A stretch of DNA of 7,361 nucleotides from a virus (taxonomy: Duplodnaviria > Heunggongvirae > Uroviricota > Caudoviricetes). Below are positions 1 through 6,254 of this stretch, piece by piece. How positions within the stretch are numbered: the first letter of the stretch is position 1; the number at the start of each line of letters is the position of its first letter. The stretch lies in the IMG/VR virus record IMGVR_UViG_2778261543_000006, positions 1 to 7,361 of that record, one strand, 5' to 3'. The translations under genes were made by a program, and so were the position numbers. The notes below the pieces were generated by a model that saw only the letters and a list, made by a program, of their open reading frames with translations, made no database searches and had not been told where the DNA came from.

Positions 1-53
1 TTTTAATCAGCGAGTCAGCTTGGGAAGAAATGACCTGCTTATTCGCACCTTCC
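1..53. repeat. Left arm of a perfect 53-bp terminal inverted repeat; partner at 7307-7359
   Basis: Bases 1-53 are the exact reverse complement of 7307-7359. Identity drops immediately inward (1 mismatch then 3 matches, then unrelated). This copy lies inside the O-like ORF and reads through in frame, so it appears native here. Confidence 0.95.
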
Positions 54-265
54 CTAACCCAATCCAGTTTTTTATTAAAGCCATATGTTTTGCGCATGAC
101 AGCCAGAAAGACCAGAAGCTGGTGCTGTGTTAATCCGGCCAGCATCACAGCTTCCAGCAACTCATTTGCAATGCGCGTATAACCATCATCGAGATCTGCC
201 ACGCGCGGCTCCTTTTGTGCCACATCCGGCACTGGAAAATTGAATATCTCAGCAGTGTTTGCCAT
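1..265 (-). CDS. Lambdoid replication initiation protein O-like, N-terminal 88 codons; 3' end lies beyond the left window edge
   Basis: Minus-strand ATG at 265..263 preceded by GGGAGG. Translation [88 protein letters not shown], open to position 1. The pattern (..NVADLDDGY.R..N.LLEA...LT..Q..VLLA..RKTYGWNK) resembles the lambda O N-terminal domain as recalled. Absent from the ORF track because it has no in-window stop. Confidence 0.7.
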   Translation of the reverse strand, partial: MANTAEIFNFPVPDVAQKEPRVADLDDGYTRIANELLEAVMLAGLTQHQLLVFLAVMRKTYGFNKKLDWVREGANKQVISSQADSLIK

Positions 266-282
266 AATTCCTCCCGCAATGA

Positions 283-552
283 GTGCGTTACGATTTGCAC
301 CTGAAAGTCGGCTCTGTTCCCGCAGACCGGCTTTCGCCATTTCTGAGCCTGTCATATTGCCCCCAACATGGTGGTAACCATCGCCATCAATGGACCAGCC
401 AGATGCTGGTCAAACGCAAAGATGGTACCTGGACTGCATCAGCTAATTTACGCGGACGACTTTATCTGCATCGCGGCATTGAGCGCACTTATACCCGTGA
501 CTTGCTCGTGGAAGTTTTTCTCGACGGACGCGGCAACGGTCTGAATCACTAA
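283..552 (+). CDS. Hypothetical small ORF occupying the position of lambda kil (GTG start at 283; an internal ATG at 397 would give 51 aa)
   Basis: ORF-track entry of 89 aa ending at TAA 550-552, the position where kil ends in lambda relative to gam. The sequence does not resemble lambda Kil as I recall it, and no convincing RBS was found. Could be non-coding. Confidence 0.2.
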   Translation: MRYDLHLKVGSVPADRLSPFLSLSYCPQHGGNHRHQWTSQMLVKRKDGTWTASANLRGRLYLHRGIERTYTRDLLVEVFLDGRGNGLNH

Positions 553-627
553 TCCCCTTTCCTGTTTTCCGAATCAGCCTGGCATTCCGCGGGCGATTTT
601 TTCACAGCCATTTTCAGGAGTTCAGCC

Positions 628-924
628 ATGAACGCTTATTACATTCAGGATCGTCTTGAGGCTCAGAGCTGGGCGCGTCACTACCAGCAGATCGCCCGTG
701 AAGAGAAAGAGGCAGAACTGGCAGACGACATGGAAAAAGGCCTGCCCCAGCACCTGTTTGAATCGCTATGCATCGATCATTTGCAACGCCACGGGGCCAG
801 CAAAAAAGCCATTACCCGTGCGTTTGATGACGATGTTGAGTTTCAGGAGCGCATGGCAGAACACATCCGGTACATGGTTGAAACCATTGCTCACCACCAG
901 GTTGATATTGATTCAGAGGTATAA
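628..924 (+). CDS. gam: Gam, RecBCD nuclease inhibitor (short GamS form, 98 aa)
   Basis: Translation [98 protein letters not shown] is recognisable as phage lambda Gam with at most a few substitutions. AGGAG RBS 7 nt upstream of the ATG. Followed 5 bp later by bet, as in lambda. Confidence 0.9.
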
Positions 925-929
925 AACGG

Positions 930-1442
930 ATGAGTACAGCACTCGCAACGCTGGCAGGGAAGCTGGCTGAACGTGTCGGCATGGATTCTGTCGACCCACA
1001 GGAACTGATCACCACTCTTCGCCAGACGGCATTTAAAGGTGATGCCAGCGATGCGCAGTTCATCGCATTGTTGATCGTCGCCAACCAGTACGGCCTTAAT
1101 CCGTGGACGAAAGAAATTTACGCCTTCCCTGATAAGCAGAACGGCATCGTTCCGGTGGTGGGCGTTGATGGCTGGTCCCGCATCATCAATGAAAACCAGC
1201 AGTTTGATGGCATGGACTTTGAGCAGGACAATGAATCCTGTACATGCCGGATTTACCGCAAGGACCGTAATCATCCGATCTGCGTTATCGAGATGGCACA
1301 TAGCCTCGCTCAAATTGGAGTCAGGTTTGTGCCAATACCAGTAGAAACAGACGAAGAATTTCATACGTTAGCCGCATCCCTTTCACAAAAGCTGGAAATG
1401 ATGGTGGCGAAAGCAGAAGCAGATGAGAGAGACCAGGTATGA
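930..1442 (+). pseudogene. bet: Truncated bet (Red-beta / RecT-family recombinase): N-terminal 119 codons fused in frame to a 51-codon unrelated tail, probably an exonuclease C-terminal remnant
   Basis: Residues 1-119 (MSTALATLAGKLAERVGMDSVDPQELITTLRQTAFKGDASDAQFIALLIVANQYGLNPWTKEIYAFPDKQNGIVPVVGVDGWSRIINENQQFDGMDFEQDNESCTCRIYRKDRNHPICV) match lambda Bet as recalled. Homology ends at 1286/1287 and the ORF continues IEMAHSLAQIGVRFVP...DERDQV. Lambda Bet is 261 aa, so the recombinase core is incomplete. GAGGT RBS upstream. Confidence 0.8.
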
Positions 1443-1522
1443 CAACCACGGAATGCATTTTTCTGGCAGCGGGCTTCATATTCTGTGTGCTTATGCTTGC
1501 CGACATGGGACTTGTTCAATGA
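1439..1522 (+). CDS. Hypothetical 27-aa hydrophobic peptide (MTTTECIFLAAGFIFCVLMLADMGLVQ), a single predicted transmembrane helix
   Basis: Its ATG overlaps the stop of the upstream ORF (ATGA at 1439-1442) and its stop overlaps the next ATG (ATGA at 1519-1522), the classic phage translational-coupling arrangement. Very short, so coding status is uncertain. Confidence 0.25.
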   Translation: MTTTECIFLAAGFIFCVLMLADMGLVQ

Positions 1523-1734
1523 CACCTCAGCAGGAAAACGCCCTTCGCAGCATTGCCCGTCAGGCTAATTCTGAAATCAAAAAAGCCAGACAGCAGTTTC
1601 CGGATAAAAACGTCGATGACATTTGCCGTAGCGTACTGAAGAAGCACCGCGAAACGGTAACGCTGATGGGATTCACACCGACTCATTTAAGCCTGGCGAT
1701 CGGCATGTTAAACGGCGTCTTTAAGGAACGGTGA
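1519..1734 (+). CDS. Hypothetical phage protein, 71 aa (MTPQQENALRSIARQANSEIKKARQQFPDKNVDDICRSVLKKHRETVTLMGFTPTHLSLAIGMLNGVFKER)
   Basis: Internal ATG of the ORF-track entry 1423..1734, chosen because it is coupled by ATGA overlap to the preceding small ORF. Charged, helical-looking composition. No family recognised. Confidence 0.45.
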   Translation: MTPQQENALRSIARQANSEIKKARQQFPDKNVDDICRSVLKKHRETVTLMGFTPTHLSLAIGMLNGVFKER

Positions 1735-1756
1735 ACATGAAAAGCAAAATCATCAG

Positions 1757-1777
1757 GGAGCTACAGGCTCCTTTTTT
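1757..1777 (+). terminator. Candidate weak intrinsic terminator (GGAGC-tacag-GCTCC followed by TTTTTT)
   Basis: 5-bp stem, 5-nt loop and a T6 run seen directly. The stem is short, and the element lies inside a possible 29-aa ORF (1737..1826, MKSKIIRELQAPFLLFAFILKRINQQFRD). Confidence 0.25.
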
Positions 1778-1832
1778 ATTGTTCGCATTCATCCTCAAGC
1801 GTATTAACCAACAATTCAGGGATTAATGGAAG

Positions 1833-2051
1833 ATGGCAGACATCATTGATTCGGCATCAGAAATCGAAGAATTACAGCGCAATACAGCAATAAAAATGCG
1901 TCGTCTGAACTACCAGACTGTATCCGCAACTCATTGTTGTGAGTGTGGCGATCCGATAGATGAGCGAAGACGCCTGGCTGTTCAGGGTTGTCGGACTTGT
2001 GCAAGTTGCCAGGAGGAGATCGAACTTAAGAACAAACAATGGGGACTGTGA
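1833..2051 (+). CDS. TraR/DksA-family C4 zinc-finger protein, 72 aa
   Basis: Translation contains CxxC-G-x2-I-x3-R ... CxxC (HCCECGDPIDERRRLAVQGCRTCASC), the signature of the TraR/DksA zinc finger. A TraR-like gene is common in the int-proximal accessory region of lambdoid phages. Confidence 0.7.
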   Translation: MADIIDSASEIEELQRNTAIKMRRLNYQTVSATHCCECGDPIDERRRLAVQGCRTCASCQEEIELKNKQWGL

Positions 2052-2098
2052 TGGCCTCAAAGCAGCAAATTTCAACATCGTCCAACTGAGGTGTAAAA

Positions 2099-2377
2099 AT
2101 GTTCAGAATCATTTTTCCTAACACCTGGTACGTCGACCACCACGGCACTCCCTGCAAAATCCTGCGTTCTACCCACAACAAAGTTCACTACATCCGAAAA
2201 GGCAGAACATGTATCGCCAGCATGTTCCGCTTTAATCATGACTTTGAACCTGTGAATAAAGCTGATGCAGATCGGATAGCAGAAGAGATCGAAACGGCAG
2301 AACACATTAAGAAGTTACGTGACATGCGTTCAAAAAGCAGAGGTAACCATGGAATCATACAGCCTCACACTCGATGA
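2099..2377 (+). CDS. Hypothetical phage protein, 92 aa
   Basis: Strong RBS (GAGGTG) 6 nt upstream of the ATG. Same orientation as the int operon. No family recognised. Confidence 0.4.
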   Translation: MFRIIFPNTWYVDHHGTPCKILRSTHNKVHYIRKGRTCIASMFRFNHDFEPVNKADADRIAEEIETAEHIKKLRDMRSKSRGNHGIIQPHTR

Positions 2378-2720
2378 GGCCTGTCAGTTTCTTAAGATAT
2401 CCAGACCAACCGCCACCAACTGGATACGAACAGGCCGCCTACAGGCAACACGTAAAGATCCAACCAAGCCAAAATCTCCTTACCTCACAACACGGCAAGC
2501 CTGCATTGCGGCGCTTCAGTCTCCGCTGCATACTGTCCAGGTGAGCGCGGGTGATGGCATAACAGAGGAAAGAAAATGTCACTCTTCCGCAGAAATGAAA
2601 TATGGTATGCCTCGTATTCGCTCCCGGGCGGGAAACGAATTAAGGAATCTCTTGGCACAAAGGACAAGCGGCAAGCTCAGGAGTTGCACGACAAGCGAAA
2701 AGCAGAACTCTGGCGAGTAG
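2349..2720 (+). CDS. xis: Putative excisionase / AlpA-like helix-turn-helix protein; 3' end runs 145 nt into int and may be frameshift-extended
   Basis: Internal ATG at 2349 with GAGGT RBS. N-terminus [33 protein letters not shown] fits the winged-HTH excisionase pattern. Sits immediately upstream of and overlapping int. Its 123 codons are longer than typical excisionases. Confidence 0.45.
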
Positions 2721-3739
2721 AAAAGCTAGGGGATTTACCTGATGTCACTTTTGAAGAGGCCTGCCTAAGATGGCTTGAGGAAAAAGCTGATAAAAAATCT
2801 CTCGATTCAGATAAAAGCCGGATTGAGTTCTGGCTTGAACATTTTGAGGGTATAAGGCTTAAAGATATCTCGGAGGCAAAGATTTACTCTGCTGTAAGCA
2901 GAATGCATAACAGAAAGACGAAAGAAATATGGAAACAGAAAGTTCAGGCCGCCATCAGGAAAGGTAAAGAACCGCCTGTTTATGAACCAAAGCCAGTATC
3001 AACTCAGACAAAGGCAAAGCATCTTGCCATGATAAAGGCCATTCTCCGTGCTGCAGAACGCGACTGGAAGTGGCTGGAAAAAGCGCCTGTCATCAAGATA
3101 CCAGCGGTCAGAAACAAGCGAGTCAGATGGCTGGAAAAGGAGGAAGCAAAACGCCTTATTGATGAGTGCCCCGAACCACTGAAATCTGTCGTCAAGTTTG
3201 CGCTGGCAACTGGTCTGAGAAAGTCGAACATCATAAATCTGGAATGGCAACAAATCGACATGCAGCGACGAGTTGCCTGGGTGAATCCAGAAGAGAGCAA
3301 ATCAAACCGCGCCATTGGTGTGGCGCTGAACGATACCGCCTGTAAAGTGTTGCGTGATCAAATAGGCAAGCATCACAAATGGGTGTTTGTACATACCAAG
3401 GCGGCTAAGCGAGCAGATGGAACATCAACGCCTGCGGTCAGGAAGATGCGCATCGACAGCAAGACATCATGGCTATCAGCTTGTCGTCGTGCAGGAATTG
3501 AAGATTTCCGTTTCCATGACCTCAGACACACCTGGGCAAGCTGGCTGATTCAGTCAGGCGTCCCATTATCAGTGCTTCAGGAAATGGGCGGATGGGAGTC
3601 CATAGAAATGGTTCGTAGGTATGCTCACCTTGCGCCTAATCATTTGACAGAGCATGCGAGGAAAATAGACGACATTTTTGGTGATAATGTCCCAAATATG
3701 TCCCACTCTGGAATTATGGAGGATATAAAGAAGGCGTAA
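2576..3739 (+). CDS. intD: Phage tyrosine integrase (site-specific recombinase), 387 aa, IntD-like (DLP12 family)
   Basis: GAGGAAAG RBS upstream. C-terminal catalytic motifs visible: Arg in [16 protein letters not shown]-x-x-R in [11 protein letters not shown], and the tyrosine in MVRRYAHL. The N-terminus [28 protein letters not shown] and the position next to argU match the E. coli DLP12 integrase as I recall it. Confidence 0.9.
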
Positions 3740-3754
3740 CTGATTGAATTGTAA

Positions 3755-3831
3755 TGGCGCGCCCTGCAGGATTCGAACCTGCGGCCCACGACTTAGAAGG
3801 TCGTTGCTCTATCCAACTGAGCTAAGGGCGC
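3755..3831 (-). tRNA. argU: tRNA-Arg (anticodon UCU), 77 nt with encoded CCA
   Basis: Minus-strand sequence GCGCCCTTAGCTCAGTTGGATAGAGCAACGACCTTCTAAGTCGTGGGCCGCAGGTTCGAATCCTGCAGGGCGCGCCA folds as a cloverleaf with the anticodon loop cuUCUaa. Matches E. coli argU, a known lambdoid prophage attachment site. Confidence 0.93.
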
Positions 3832-3862
3832 GTTGATACCGCAATGCGGTGTAATCGCGTGA

Positions 3863-3890
3863 ATTATACGGTCAACCCTTGCTGAGTCAA
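3863..3890 (-). promoter_or_regulatory. Candidate sigma-70 promoter for argU (-35 TTGACT, 16-bp spacer, -10 TATAAT)
   Basis: Read on the minus strand: TTGACT at 3890..3885 and TATAAT at 3868..3863. The -10 hexamer ends 31 nt upstream of the mature tRNA 5' end, consistent with a short processed leader. Confidence 0.45.
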
Positions 3891-4073
3891 TGGCTTTTGA
3901 TCTGGTTGCTGAACAAGTGAACGACCGCGTCTGATTTTCTGATTTATTTCGCTATAGCGGCAAACAAACACACACCGCTGCGCGTCTGAATCAAGAAAAC
4001 CCGTATTTTCATGTATCAAAGTACAATTTACCGCCCTAACGGAAAATTGTCCGCTCCTATGAGACTGGTAACT

Positions 4074-4706
4074 ATGAAACCAACGTCGGTGATCATTATG
4101 GATACTCATCCTATCATCAGAATGTCTATTGAAGTTCTGTTGCAAAAAAACAGTGAATTGCAGATTGTCCTGAAAACGGATGATTACCGCATAACCATCG
4201 ATTATCTCCGAACCCGTCCTGTTGATTTAATCATTATGGATATAGACTTGCCCGGAACAGACGGTTTTACCTTCCTGAAAAGGATCAAACAAATCCAGAG
4301 CACAGTGAAAGTGTTATTTTTATCATCGAAATCAGAATGCTTTTATGCTGGCAGAGCGATACAAGCTGGTGCTAACGGTTTTGTCAGTAAATGCAATGAT
4401 CAGAATGATATTTTTCATGCCGTTCAGATGATCCTCTCCGGATACACGTTTTTTCCTAGCGAAACGCTTAACTATATAAAAAGCAATAAATGTAGTACGA
4501 ATAGTTCAACGGTCACTGTGCTATCTAATCGTGAAGTGACCATATTACGTTATCTGGTTAGCGGATTATCTAATAAAGAAATTGCCGATAAGTTATTACT
4601 TAGCAATAAAACAGTTAGTGCGCATAAATCTAATATTTATGGCAAGCTAGGTTTGCATTCAATTGTAGAGCTTATCGACTACGCCAAATTATACGAATTA
4701 ATATAA
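4074..4706 (+). CDS. fimZ: FimZ, LuxR/NarL-family two-component response regulator (210 aa) regulating fimbrial expression
   Basis: Receiver domain (DLIIMDIDLPGTDG) and C-terminal LuxR HTH (LSNREVTILRYLVSGLSNKEIADKLLLSNKTVSAHKSNIYGKLG). Start taken at MKPTSVIIMD, the internal ATG of ORF 4011..4706, giving the known 210-aa length. AT-rich gene, as is typical for fimZ. Confidence 0.9.
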   Translation: MKPTSVIIMDTHPIIRMSIEVLLQKNSELQIVLKTDDYRITIDYLRTRPVDLIIMDIDLPGTDGFTFLKRIKQIQSTVKVLFLSSKSECFYAGRAIQAGANGFVSKCNDQNDIFHAVQMILSGYTFFPSETLNYIKSNKCSTNSSTVTVLSNREVTILRYLVSGLSNKEIADKLLLSNKTVSAHKSNIYGKLGLHSIVELIDYAKLYELI

Positions 4707-4708
4707 TA

Positions 4709-5224
4709 TTAATTATAATTGATCATAAATATCGCATCCGCTTTCGCCACACCTGGCCGAACACCGCTGGCTAACGCTCGATAATTGGCAAAAAAGTTTA
4801 GTGTGACATTGCCATTTGCATCTACTTCCTCAGTCGGGCTCGCCTCCCCCAGTGCGAGCCGGGAGCGATCGCTATTACGTAATTCGATGGCGACGGTTTG
4901 TGCCATTGCGGGATCATCCAGAGCCAGCAGGTTGGTATCGGATGCCGGCGTTCCCGTAAATAAAATCGCAACTGAACCCGGAGGACATCCCTCCAGCCGC
5001 AGGCTAAAAGGGACGAGTGCCGTGGTATCGCCAGCGTTCAGTAATTGTGTCGTAGGCCATCTGCCTAAATCTACCGTCTTATCAATATCCGCAGTGTTTA
5101 CGGTACAGGAGAAATCAACAACGTTACCGTGCAAATTGATATTAATCGTTCCCAAAGGGTCAGCTGCCCATCCACTGGAAATCCACAGTAACCCGCAGAA
5201 ACAGCTAAAGAGTGCTCTTCTCAT
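4709..5224 (-). CDS. sfmF: SfmF, minor fimbrial subunit (171 aa)
   Basis: Start at MRRALFSCFCGLLWISSGWA (signal peptide) with a GGAG RBS, rather than the upstream ATG of ORF-track entry 4709..5419 that would overlap sfmH. Fimbrial-subunit-like composition. Lies between sfmH and fimZ as in the E. coli sfm locus. Confidence 0.85.
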   Translation of the reverse strand: MRRALFSCFCGLLWISSGWAADPLGTININLHGNVVDFSCTVNTADIDKTVDLGRWPTTQLLNAGDTTALVPFSLRLEGCPPGSVAILFTGTPASDTNLLALDDPAMAQTVAIELRNSDRSRLALGEASPTEEVDANGNVTLNFFANYRALASGVRPGVAKADAIFMINYN

Positions 5225-5234
5225 TCTCCGTACC

Positions 5235-6242
5235 TCATTGATAATCGACGCGTAAATACCCCAGCGCGCTAAACGGCCCTTCGGTCGGTTTTTGACCGGT
5301 AATACTGATAGGCCAGGCGCGAAGTGTGACATTGGCTGCCGCAGCTGCATCCAGACGGAAAGGAATAACGCTATTGAGATCGTTAGGCGTGATCGGCGTA
5401 TCGTTCTGATCGGCGACAATAAAACCTAAATCCTGATTGTCCGACACCATCGCCTGACCAGAAACGGCACTGGCTTCCAGACGCATTGTTAAATAAGCCT
5501 GCGCAGCAACATTCGTACATTTGACCGCAATGCTCTTGGTTTGCGGCATGACACCAGCAGGTCGATTACCCGGCCCTGCCGCACTAAATAACGATGCGCC
5601 GATATCACCAAAATCAAATTCAACAATCTGCCCGGCATTTAATTCGCAGTTTTGCGGTACTTCAACCCGGCCACCAAAACTAATGGTATAAACAGGTGTA
5701 ACCAACGGATCGTAAGGCGTTGATGTCACATACACGGTAAACATCACCTGTCTGGGGATCTCCACCATGTTAATAAAGGGACGAATAACCTTTAAACGAA
5801 ATATTAAACGAGAATCCATCACCCCGAATGGAAGGTTTTGCGAAACGTTAGGATCTGTTCCCATCAGAATATAATTTTGCGGGGGGAACTGAATATCCAT
5901 CACACTATCAACCAGACTCATCGCACCTAATAGATAATCATTTAATTGCATATATTTATAATTATCGATAGTTTCCTGAACAATAAAGTTGGTGACATAA
6001 CTACGGTATGTATAATTCACCAGCGTACCGGGTGGACAAATTGCTGAGACACCTACCCAGCCGGATTTTTCCGGTAAAACAACAATCTGCCCTGGCTGGT
6101 TATTGGTGCTATTAAAGATATTTGAGAGATCATAGTGTTCATCTTCTGCTACGCCAGTACTATTTGCACAAACAGTAGCCCAGGATATGTTTGCCAGACA
6201 CAAACATGCCATCGCCAATAATAATCTGCAGATTATCTTCAT
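5235..6242 (-). CDS. sfmH: SfmH, FimH-like fimbrial tip adhesin (335 aa as called)
   Basis: N-terminal signal peptide MKIICRLLLAMACLCLANISWA, with an AGGAAA RBS immediately after the sfmD stop. Size and two-domain adhesin-like composition fit. An alternative internal start is possible. Confidence 0.85.
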   Translation of the reverse strand: MKIICRLLLAMACLCLANISWATVCANSTGVAEDEHYDLSNIFNSTNNQPGQIVVLPEKSGWVGVSAICPPGTLVNYTYRSYVTNFIVQETIDNYKYMQLNDYLLGAMSLVDSVMDIQFPPQNYILMGTDPNVSQNLPFGVMDSRLIFRLKVIRPFINMVEIPRQVMFTVYVTSTPYDPLVTPVYTISFGGRVEVPQNCELNAGQIVEFDFGDIGASLFSAAGPGNRPAGVMPQTKSIAVKCTNVAAQAYLTMRLEASAVSGQAMVSDNQDLGFIVADQNDTPITPNDLNSVIPFRLDAAAAANVTLRAWPISITGQKPTEGPFSALGYLRVDYQ

Positions 6243-6254
6243 TGATAATTTCCT

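Follow-up and report, generated by a model that had tools for sequence, protein, structure and literature searches.

The closeness of an O-like replication gene to gam in the stretch of DNA analysed here (the window, 7,361 nt in full) is very probably a deletion scar. The window is best read, from its sequence, as an Escherichia coli chromosomal contig carrying a DLP12-type cryptic lambdoid prophage at argU. We propose that illegitimate recombination at an AT dinucleotide (403–404) would have removed the immunity region of this prophage, about 3–3.6 kb, a size that, like the content of the lost block, was inferred from mosaic relatives with differing immunity cassettes (2,991–3,628 bp) and not from the ancestor itself. 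The arrangement is the outcome of ordinary decay of a prophage and does not represent a new phage layout.

The gene positions on which this reading depends were confirmed by translations, Pfam matches and the list of open reading frames. As the sequence-only reading had described, O starts at 265 on the minus strand and gam at 628 on the plus strand, and the two are divergent and separated by a 362-bp interval (266–627) that holds an ORF at 283–552. The O translation from the ATG at 265–263 has the N-terminus MANTAEIFNFPVPDVAQKEPRVADLDDGYTRIANELLEA... and reads MANTAEIFNF...VADLDDGYTRIANELLEA, which aligns with MTNTAKILNF...VADLDDGYARLSNMLLEA of lambda O. Its match to the Pfam Phage_rep_O profile (E = 1.3e-19) covers positions 1–50 of 95 only. 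An IS5-like element cuts the gene at 53/54, next to the target CTAA, and leaves a stub of 70 codons. A Shine-Dalgarno sequence, GGAGG, lies at 272–276 on the minus strand, just 5' of the start. PGAP places the O start 90 bp further upstream in some genomes (window-equivalent 355), overlapping the ydaT stop; we disfavored this start because the lambda alignment and the Shine-Dalgarno sequence favor 265. The Gam product matches PF06064 over positions 1–98 of 98 (E = 3.4e-65) and corresponds to residues 41–138 of lambda Gam (the short form) with two substitutions.

We compared the window with intact relatives to locate the deletion joint. BLAST against the intact argU prophages of STEC384 (L001) and JB2 (L002) returned three collinear blocks (54–411, 398/403–1296 and 1286–7306) at 96.6–99.9% identity, and 99.4–99.9% at best. 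These two prophages and the cultured phage IdasGreatGrand (record PP925829) share the order ren - P - O - YdaT - cro-like - cI-like - hypotheticals - Kil - Gam - Bet - Exo ... Int. Against JB2 and IdasGreatGrand, the left block matches without a mismatch up to position 404 and the right block does so from 403 onwards, which places the joint (joint 1) at the shared AT. Compared with JB2, IdasGreatGrand and STEC384, the window lacks 3,628, 3,617 and 2,991 bp there, respectively. The distance between the same two blocks in these relatives bears out the earlier proposal of a large internal deletion that fused the pR-side and pL-side modules. At joint 1 a gene is broken on each side, the ydaT-type gene on the left and kil on the right. 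A second joint (joint 2) removed the 3' part of bet, exo, a DUF1317 gene and the 5' part of a DUF1382 gene. Base-by-base comparison revealed no IS, att scar or long homology at joint 1 and no IS or att scar at joint 2. Both joints thus have the features of a microhomology deletion: collinear flanks, a 2-bp shared crossover and no mobile-element or att scar. The features of the window are collected in Table 1.

Table 1. Positions of genes, gene remnants, joints and signals in the window.
Feature	Position	Strand	Evidence and remarks
IS5-like (ISKpn26-family) terminus	1–53		Inverted repeat CTTATTCGCACCTTCC at 38–53; target CTAA at 54–57
O', first 70 codons of a lambda-O-type replication initiator gene	56–265	-	Translation, Pfam Phage_rep_O, lambda alignment
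Sigma-70 promoter-like site, TTGAAT-17-CATAAT, TG before the -10	240–268	+	Lambda pO homologue by position and sequence
Native ydaT-O spacer	266–351	-	Contiguous with O in all relatives (96–99% identity); carries the O Shine-Dalgarno sequence
ORF, 89 aa, GTG start	283–552	+	Chimera: 40 codons antisense to the ydaT'-O spacer, in frame with kil'
Stable hairpin, 14 pairs and one bulge, followed only by UUU	303–335	+	MFE -28.8 kcal/mol for 274–360, z = -2.8
ydaT-type 3' remnant (cII slot), stop and last ~17 codons, ..LAGPLMAMVTTMLGAI*	352–404	-	Matches the JB2 YdaT C-terminus
kil', last 49 codons of a KilR/Kil-family cell-division inhibitor gene	403–552	+	Protein comparison, PHROG 294, PF27398
Joint 1, deletion crossover	403–404		2-bp exact microhomology AT within an imperfect 8/10 match (ATnCnGGTC)
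Two native terminator-like hairpins with T-runs	495–511, 577–594	+	Terminator scan; between kil' and gam; also in JB2
Native kil-gam spacer	553–627		
gam, RecBCD-inhibitor gene, 98 aa, intact	628–924	+	Pfam Gam, full length; AGGAG 7 nt before the ATG
Bet'-DUF1382' in-frame fusion, 170 aa	930–1442	+	RecT at residues 24–102, DUF1382 at 120–167 (Pfam)
Joint 2, crossover	1286–1287		TA microhomology; 1,293 bp missing
intD, tyrosine integrase, 387 aa	2576–3739	+	ORF list and Pfam; abuts argU
tRNA-Arg(UCU), argU	3755–3831	-	ARAGORN; DLP12 attachment site
Second IS5-like terminus	7307–7361		Inserted in sfmD; target TTAA at 7303–7306

The layout of the contig identifies its chromosomal site. The window runs IS5 end / O' / ydaT' / kil' / gam / bet' ... 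intD / argU / fimZ / sfm genes / IS5 end. Its first 58 nucleotides correspond to the element terminus that follows the ISKpn26 transposase genes in JB2, and the reverse complement of 7307–7361 is an exact match to 1–53 plus 2 extra bases. The two ends are the same IS5-like terminus in opposite orientation, each abutting a 4-bp target, and the window therefore resembles a short-read contig broken at IS5 repeats. Beside argU and intD lie fimZ, sfmF, sfmH and part of sfmD. Positions 2481–7306 are 99.4% identical to the argU/intD/fimZ/sfm region of K-12 MG1655, which is annotated as the cryptic prophage DLP12. Integration at the 3' end of argU, an adjacent intD and neighboring fimZ/sfm genes are the marks of DLP12. 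The window covers the integrase-proximal arm of the prophage. The right arm of DLP12 is outside the window, which stops at the IS5 in O. It can be seen in a public contig (L005, GCA_002512315.1) that is identical to window positions 54–7306 at 7253/7253 bases and is without both IS5s. This contig carries P, ren and a gene for the full 309-aa O, and its right arm comprises ren, emrE, ylcJ, ybcK, ybcL, ybcM, ybcO, rusA, ylcG, an antiterminator Q homologue and an nmpC-type porin gene.

The interval between O and gam consists of native spacers and the ends of two broken genes. The sequence-only reading had found no cII-like frame ending just upstream of O, and this holds: only the last ~17 codons of a ydaT-type gene are left there. 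The intact JB2 YdaT is a 179-aa protein (Pfam YdaT_toxin, E = 2.7e-30). One phage record annotates the ydaT-type gene as 'CII-like', and the gene occupies the lambda cII slot. On the other side of joint 1, the kil' product is identical to the C-terminal 49 aa of a 68-aa annotated protein. PHROG 294 (Kil) spans residues 20–96 of the 96-aa JB2 ORF, of which the window retains 48–96, so that kil' keeps 49 of at least 77 family-conserved residues. The N-terminal third or more of kil, its ribosome-binding site and its promoter were deleted. The kil product carries the precomputed Pfam label PF27398 KilR; our own Pfam profile search gave no match for the kil-position protein or for the product of ORF 283–552. 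By direct comparison, the kil-slot ORF is unrelated in sequence to the 47-aa lambda Kil, and we rejected its identification as lambda Kil. The ATG at 403 was likewise rejected as a native kil start, since the direct comparison identifies it as an internal Met. We read the 283–552 ORF as a chimera made by the deletion. It has no Shine-Dalgarno sequence before its GTG. Its exact 89-aa product appears in 13 public contigs under the name 'hypothetical protein [Escherichia coli]'.

We used the JB2 prophage as a guide to what the lost block held. Besides the 5' 90% of ydaT and the 5' part of kil, the block missing relative to JB2 encodes a 75-aa cro-like repressor (PHROG 35), a 230-aa CI-like repressor (PHROG 4 and 6201) and two cargo ORFs of 337 and 149 aa without a family match. 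It also contains a bidirectional terminator and a strong pL-like promoter, TTGATA-17-TATTAT, at L002 5115–5143. Two copies of a 16-bp motif, AATAGCAATAnnTATT (L002 5101–5116 and 5126–5141), overlap this promoter, and the same motif (AATAGCAATACGTATT) recurs in the divergent cro/cI region of JB2. A motif shared by the pL-like site and the cro/cI region is the expected oL/oR pattern, so the pL/oL of the relative lies inside the deleted block. The earlier suggestion that gam was left without a repressor-controlled pL agrees with this placement. The suggestion that the missing genes were cII, cro, cI, rex, N and cIII stood in part: cro-like and cI-like genes were lost, but the set is not literally that of lambda, and the slots hold different genes. 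A PHROGs search of the missing JB2 block recognized no N-, cIII- or rex-like protein and left the 337-, 149- and 62-aa ORFs without families, so the lambda gene list applies by analogy only. An Rfam match to isrJ in this block (29.1 bits against a gathering score of 37) falls on the bidirectional terminator and was treated as a chance match.

We propose the following model for how the window acquired its present form. The ydaT-type gene, which immediately precedes O, would have been broken in its 3' end, and the kil-family gene, which immediately precedes gam, would have been broken internally. The whole immunity region would have been lost between these two breakpoints, including the cro-like gene, the cI-like repressor gene, oR, the lysogen cargo genes and pL/oL. 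O and gam would now face away from each other at such short distance because this region was deleted. A second, similar deletion at the TA of 1286–1287 would have fused bet to the DUF1382 gene and removed exo, and IS5 would have cut O later. Removal of the repressor would have been tolerated because the same event took pL and disabled kil, and gam would have been left without a dedicated promoter. The product would be a dead remnant, without a repressor, pL, exo or a complete O on the contig and with a truncated kil. The content of the prophage in the window is defective in the same sense: repressor, cro, pL and exo are absent, kil and bet are truncated and O is cut by IS5.

We examined the possible sources of gam transcription in the remnant. 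A promoter scan of 1–1000 on the gam strand returned the site at 240–268 as its sole promoter-like match against a chance expectation of 0.7, which is not significant; the site carries weight because it is homologous to lambda pO. It aligns with TTGAGT-17-CATAAT of lambda, its -10 overlaps the O start codon, and the predicted transcription start is near G276, directed towards kil' and gam. The -10 of lambda pO lies 8–13 nt rightward of the oop 5' end at 38,675 (PMC5869508), so it overlaps the O ATG at 38,686. A LexA site has been reported within lambda oop-pO (PMC5869508). The sequence downstream of 240–268 is not homologous to lambda oop, and the gene upstream of O is ydaT-type, not cII. An Rfam scan of positions 1–1500 at E <= 1 gave no oop-like or other RNA match. 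The hairpin at 303–335 may be a weak oop-like terminator. It was not called by the terminator scan; in EC05 (NZ_CM169495), another argU remnant, the sequence differs at the bulge (312) and by a U-G to U-A change at 330, both of which are compatible with the stem. On these predictions, 240–268 is the only candidate promoter facing gam, about 350 nt upstream of it. Three hairpins (303–335, 495–511 and 577–594) lie in between, so gam is probably poorly transcribed and probably expressed weakly if at all. Weak read-through into gam from the pO-like site would be a minority possibility.

The joints were traced in public genomes. Carriers were found by exact-protein look-up of the Bet' fusion in draft assemblies, and nine places were inspected, from 24 contigs in 122 listed collection blocks. 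The exact fusion protein is present on 79 contigs. Six of the nine inspected places contain the exact 40-nt sequence of joint 1 (L005, L006, L008, L011, L012 and L013); they come from different projects, with contigs of 168–322 kb among them. The recurrence of joint 1 in six independent assemblies, together with the 100% identity of L005, indicates that the joint has been passed on by descent and was not produced during assembly. The IS5 copies were inserted afterwards, as L005 has joint 1 without them. Joint 1 was found in none of 5,426 complete E. coli genomes and joint 2 in one (PSS-07). The joint 1 lineage is rare among complete genomes.

Further losses are nested around these joints. In L007, L009 and PSS-07, a deletion runs from P' into kil' and ends at window-equivalent 423. 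L008 has a deletion from 429 to 813 and a 44-aa gam stub; L010 has a deletion reaching 804 and no gam. O is truncated at 167 in L013, and the segment 557–2499 is inverted in L006. Most sister alleles, including PSS-07, retain gam. The breakpoints in kil are at 403 in the window lineage, at 424 in EC05 and at 423 in PSS-07, L007 and L009. DLP12 occurs in 74% of 638 genomes in a study that discusses prophage decay of this kind (PMC6379469). The window lineage represents progressive erosion of a grounded prophage, which is a well-described process.

We considered whether the joint could have arisen in other ways or belong to a different kind of element. A compact phage type that natively has O adjacent to gam and encodes its immunity elsewhere would account for the recurrence of the arrangement in several public assemblies, but every carrier is a DLP12-type remnant at argU and not a phage. 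The sequence-only reading had named a contiguous native 266–627 segment in related intact phages as the observation that would overturn a deletion. None of the 302 matching phage records holds such a segment, and none covers at least 80% of 1–1000 in one place; their matches begin at 398 in phages that share this type of kil and at 546 in Stx phages, whose kil is different. Joint 1 truncates two genes that are complete in relatives, and the cultured IdasGreatGrand has its 3,617 bp between the same two blocks. We consider a native layout extremely unlikely. The chance that a chimeric contig was joined at a short repeat is close to negligible: the window is a short-read-style contig with an IS5 repeat of about 55 nt at both ends, but a 2-bp microhomology is far too short to mislead an assembler, and the exact joint recurs in the six assemblies from different projects. 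Recombination between two resident lambdoid prophages is conceivable in genomes that carry a median of 2–3 matching places with homologous O/gam regions, and an adjacent deletion mediated by IS5 is suggested by an IS5 350 bp from the joint. Both flanks nevertheless match the same JB2 prophage best, at one locus and in one orientation (99.4% for 54–404 and 99.8% for 403–1287, as two collinear blocks), and the joint contains no IS sequence or long homology. The IS5-mediated deletion was rejected because L005 has the joint without IS5. We judge an origin by either of these two routes to be highly unlikely.

The deletion could also have created a unit in which the pO-like promoter drives useful Gam expression, either constitutive or SOS-responsive. 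This idea draws on an intact gam with a strong Shine-Dalgarno sequence, on the pO homologue that faces it, on the LexA site of lambda oop-pO (PMC5869508) and on the retention of gam in most sister alleles, including PSS-07. Against it, gam is truncated or lost in other sisters (the stub in L008, its absence from L010 and a partial gene in EC05), a pattern that does not point to selection for keeping the gene. The path from the promoter to gam contains three hairpins, of which two have T-runs, and the lineage is rare, with joint 1 in 0/5,426 complete genomes. Constitutive inhibition of RecBCD is generally costly. We consider a domesticated Gam very unlikely. A more elaborate version holds that the pO-type promoter drives a new kil'-gam-bet' transcript that gives the host a low-level, possibly SOS-modulated RecBCD inhibitor, and that the independent deletions repeatedly ending within the first third of kil reflect selection for disarming this gene upon repressor loss; we regard this version as very unlikely. 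We conclude that a deletion of the immunity region from a DLP12-type prophage best explains the O-gam junction.

Both the mechanism (microhomology-mediated deletion of an immunity region) and the outcome (a grounded remnant) are well known. Joint 1 itself may be undescribed in print, though public assemblies hold it with its neighbors annotated as partial or hypothetical. The striking juxtaposition of genes was left by a deletion in a cryptic prophage family that is already well known, and it has little import beyond annotation hygiene. Three features need a corrected annotation: ORF 283–552 as a chimera, the 170-aa 'Bet' as a Bet'-DUF1382' fusion and O as a stub cut by IS5. The DLP12 decay alleles form a nested series that could be used to mark lineages.

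We compared the window allele to known systems. JB2, STEC384 and IdasGreatGrand are 96.6–99.9% identical to the retained blocks and have the same gene order on both sides of joint 1, but they carry the 3.0–3.6 kb immunity block and a 1.3 kb bet-exo block. The early region of lambda has a homologous O N-terminus, homologous pO hexamers and a homologous Gam, and its gene order and strands match those of the window. It differs in that a gene with a YdaT domain fills the cII slot of the window type, the protein of the kil slot has no sequence relationship to lambda Kil and the RNA downstream of the pO-like site is not homologous to oop. EC05 is an argU remnant with the order O - ydaT' - kil' - gam' and a deleted immunity region. 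Compared with the window, it retains an additional 147 bp of ydaT and lacks a further 21 bp of kil, its joint corresponding to window position 424. It also has a second deletion from gam (817) to a DUF4222 gene (2117). Since EC05 keeps more of ydaT and less of kil, its deletion was an independent event and neither allele derives from the other.

The closest reference is DLP12, the cryptic lambdoid prophage of E. coli K-12 (Lindsey et al. 1989, as cited in PMC6379469), annotated in NC_000913. The K-12 prophage occupies the same argU 3'-end site, has the same intD, is 99.4% identical over 2481–7306 and shares its right arm with L005, and both alleles are without an immunity region. In K-12 the whole stretch from exo' to P' (exoD'-peaD') is gone and ren contains an IS3. 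The window allele has retained kil', gam, bet' and a number of small genes, as well as P and O (in L005). Its immunity region was lost by a different, smaller deletion, and a separate deletion affected bet and exo. K-12 keeps an exo fragment that is absent from the window allele, so neither derives from the other. These sequence comparisons support classing the window allele as a member of the DLP12 family and as a structural allele different from the K-12 reference.

The second deletion, at joint 2 (1286-1287), removed 1,293 bp and took exo and the DUF1317 gene with it. It left an in-frame fusion of truncated Bet (RecT) to truncated DUF1382, a 170-aa product encoded at window 930-1442. NCBI records label this Bet'-DUF1382' fusion "phage recombination protein Bet", and the exact protein is found in 79 contigs and one complete genome (PSS-07).

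Breakpoints inside kil also occur at several loci besides the window. The right breakpoints fall at window-equivalent positions 403, 423 and 424, a span of 21 bp, and the deletions that produced them are either independent or nested. A deletion hotspot inside kil may be the reason for this clustering. Alternatively, the breakpoints may cluster through selection against an intact kil once the repressor had been lost.

In L006, a sister-allele assembly of the same lineage, the counterpart of window 557-2499, which runs from gam to the DUF4222 gene, lies within 9628-12073 and is inverted relative to its flanks. Overlaps of ~10 bp at both ends of the inverted segment suggest that the inversion arose at short imperfect inverted repeats. 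The window itself ends in the termini of IS5-like copies that interrupt O after codon 70 and sfmD, respectively, and neither copy is present in the sister locus L005. Because the same terminus occurs in inverted orientation at both ends, a 7.25-kb segment is bracketed by two inverted copies, and recombination between them could invert it. At window 2319-2720, an ORF with an HTH_17-type excisionase-like N-terminus overlaps the start of int. In RefSeq its equivalent is annotated as a partial HTH pseudogene, and xis thus appears to be degraded as well.

In the intact argU prophage of JB2 (L002), a 16-bp motif, AATAGCAATAnnTATT, occurs both in the divergent region of cro/cI and, upstream of kil, at a promoter-like site. 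Its copies are candidate oR/oL operators of that immunity type. An Rfam isrJ match in JB2 (4907-4970) scored 29.1 bits, below the gathering score of 37, and is probably due to chance. The match falls on a bidirectional terminator that separates the lysogen cargo genes from the putative pL.

Coordinates of kil-internal breakpoints, IS5-like termini and candidate operators
Feature	Locus	Position	Remark
kil-internal breakpoint	L003 (E. coli EC05)	within 6212-6900	
kil-internal breakpoint	L007		
kil-internal breakpoint	L009		
kil-internal breakpoint	L016 (PSS-07)		
IS5-like (ISKpn26-family) terminus	window	1-53	target CTAA 54-57, YTAR-type
Same terminus, inverted	window	7307-7361	target TTAA 7303-7306, YTAR-type
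AATAGCAATAnnTATT, 16-bp motif	L002 (JB2)	2630-2645, 5101-5116, 5126-5141	

PGAP calls O inconsistently between genomes (783-1802 in the intact prophages L001 and L002 versus 5283-6212 in the remnant L003). The 339-aa call starts 90 bp further upstream and overlaps the ydaT stop, whereas the 309-aa call starts at the lambda-equivalent MANTA codon. Alignment to lambda and the SD lead us to favor the 309-aa form. On the plus strand of window 240-340, a pO-like promoter and a hairpin (303-335) predict an RNA of ~60 nt that is antisense to both the 5' UTR and the ribosome-binding site of O. Among ydaT-type prophages this region shows high conservation, with matches in 2,173 complete genomes. Although its sequence is not homologous to lambda oop and its T-run is weak, the promoter and hairpin are oop-like in their architecture.
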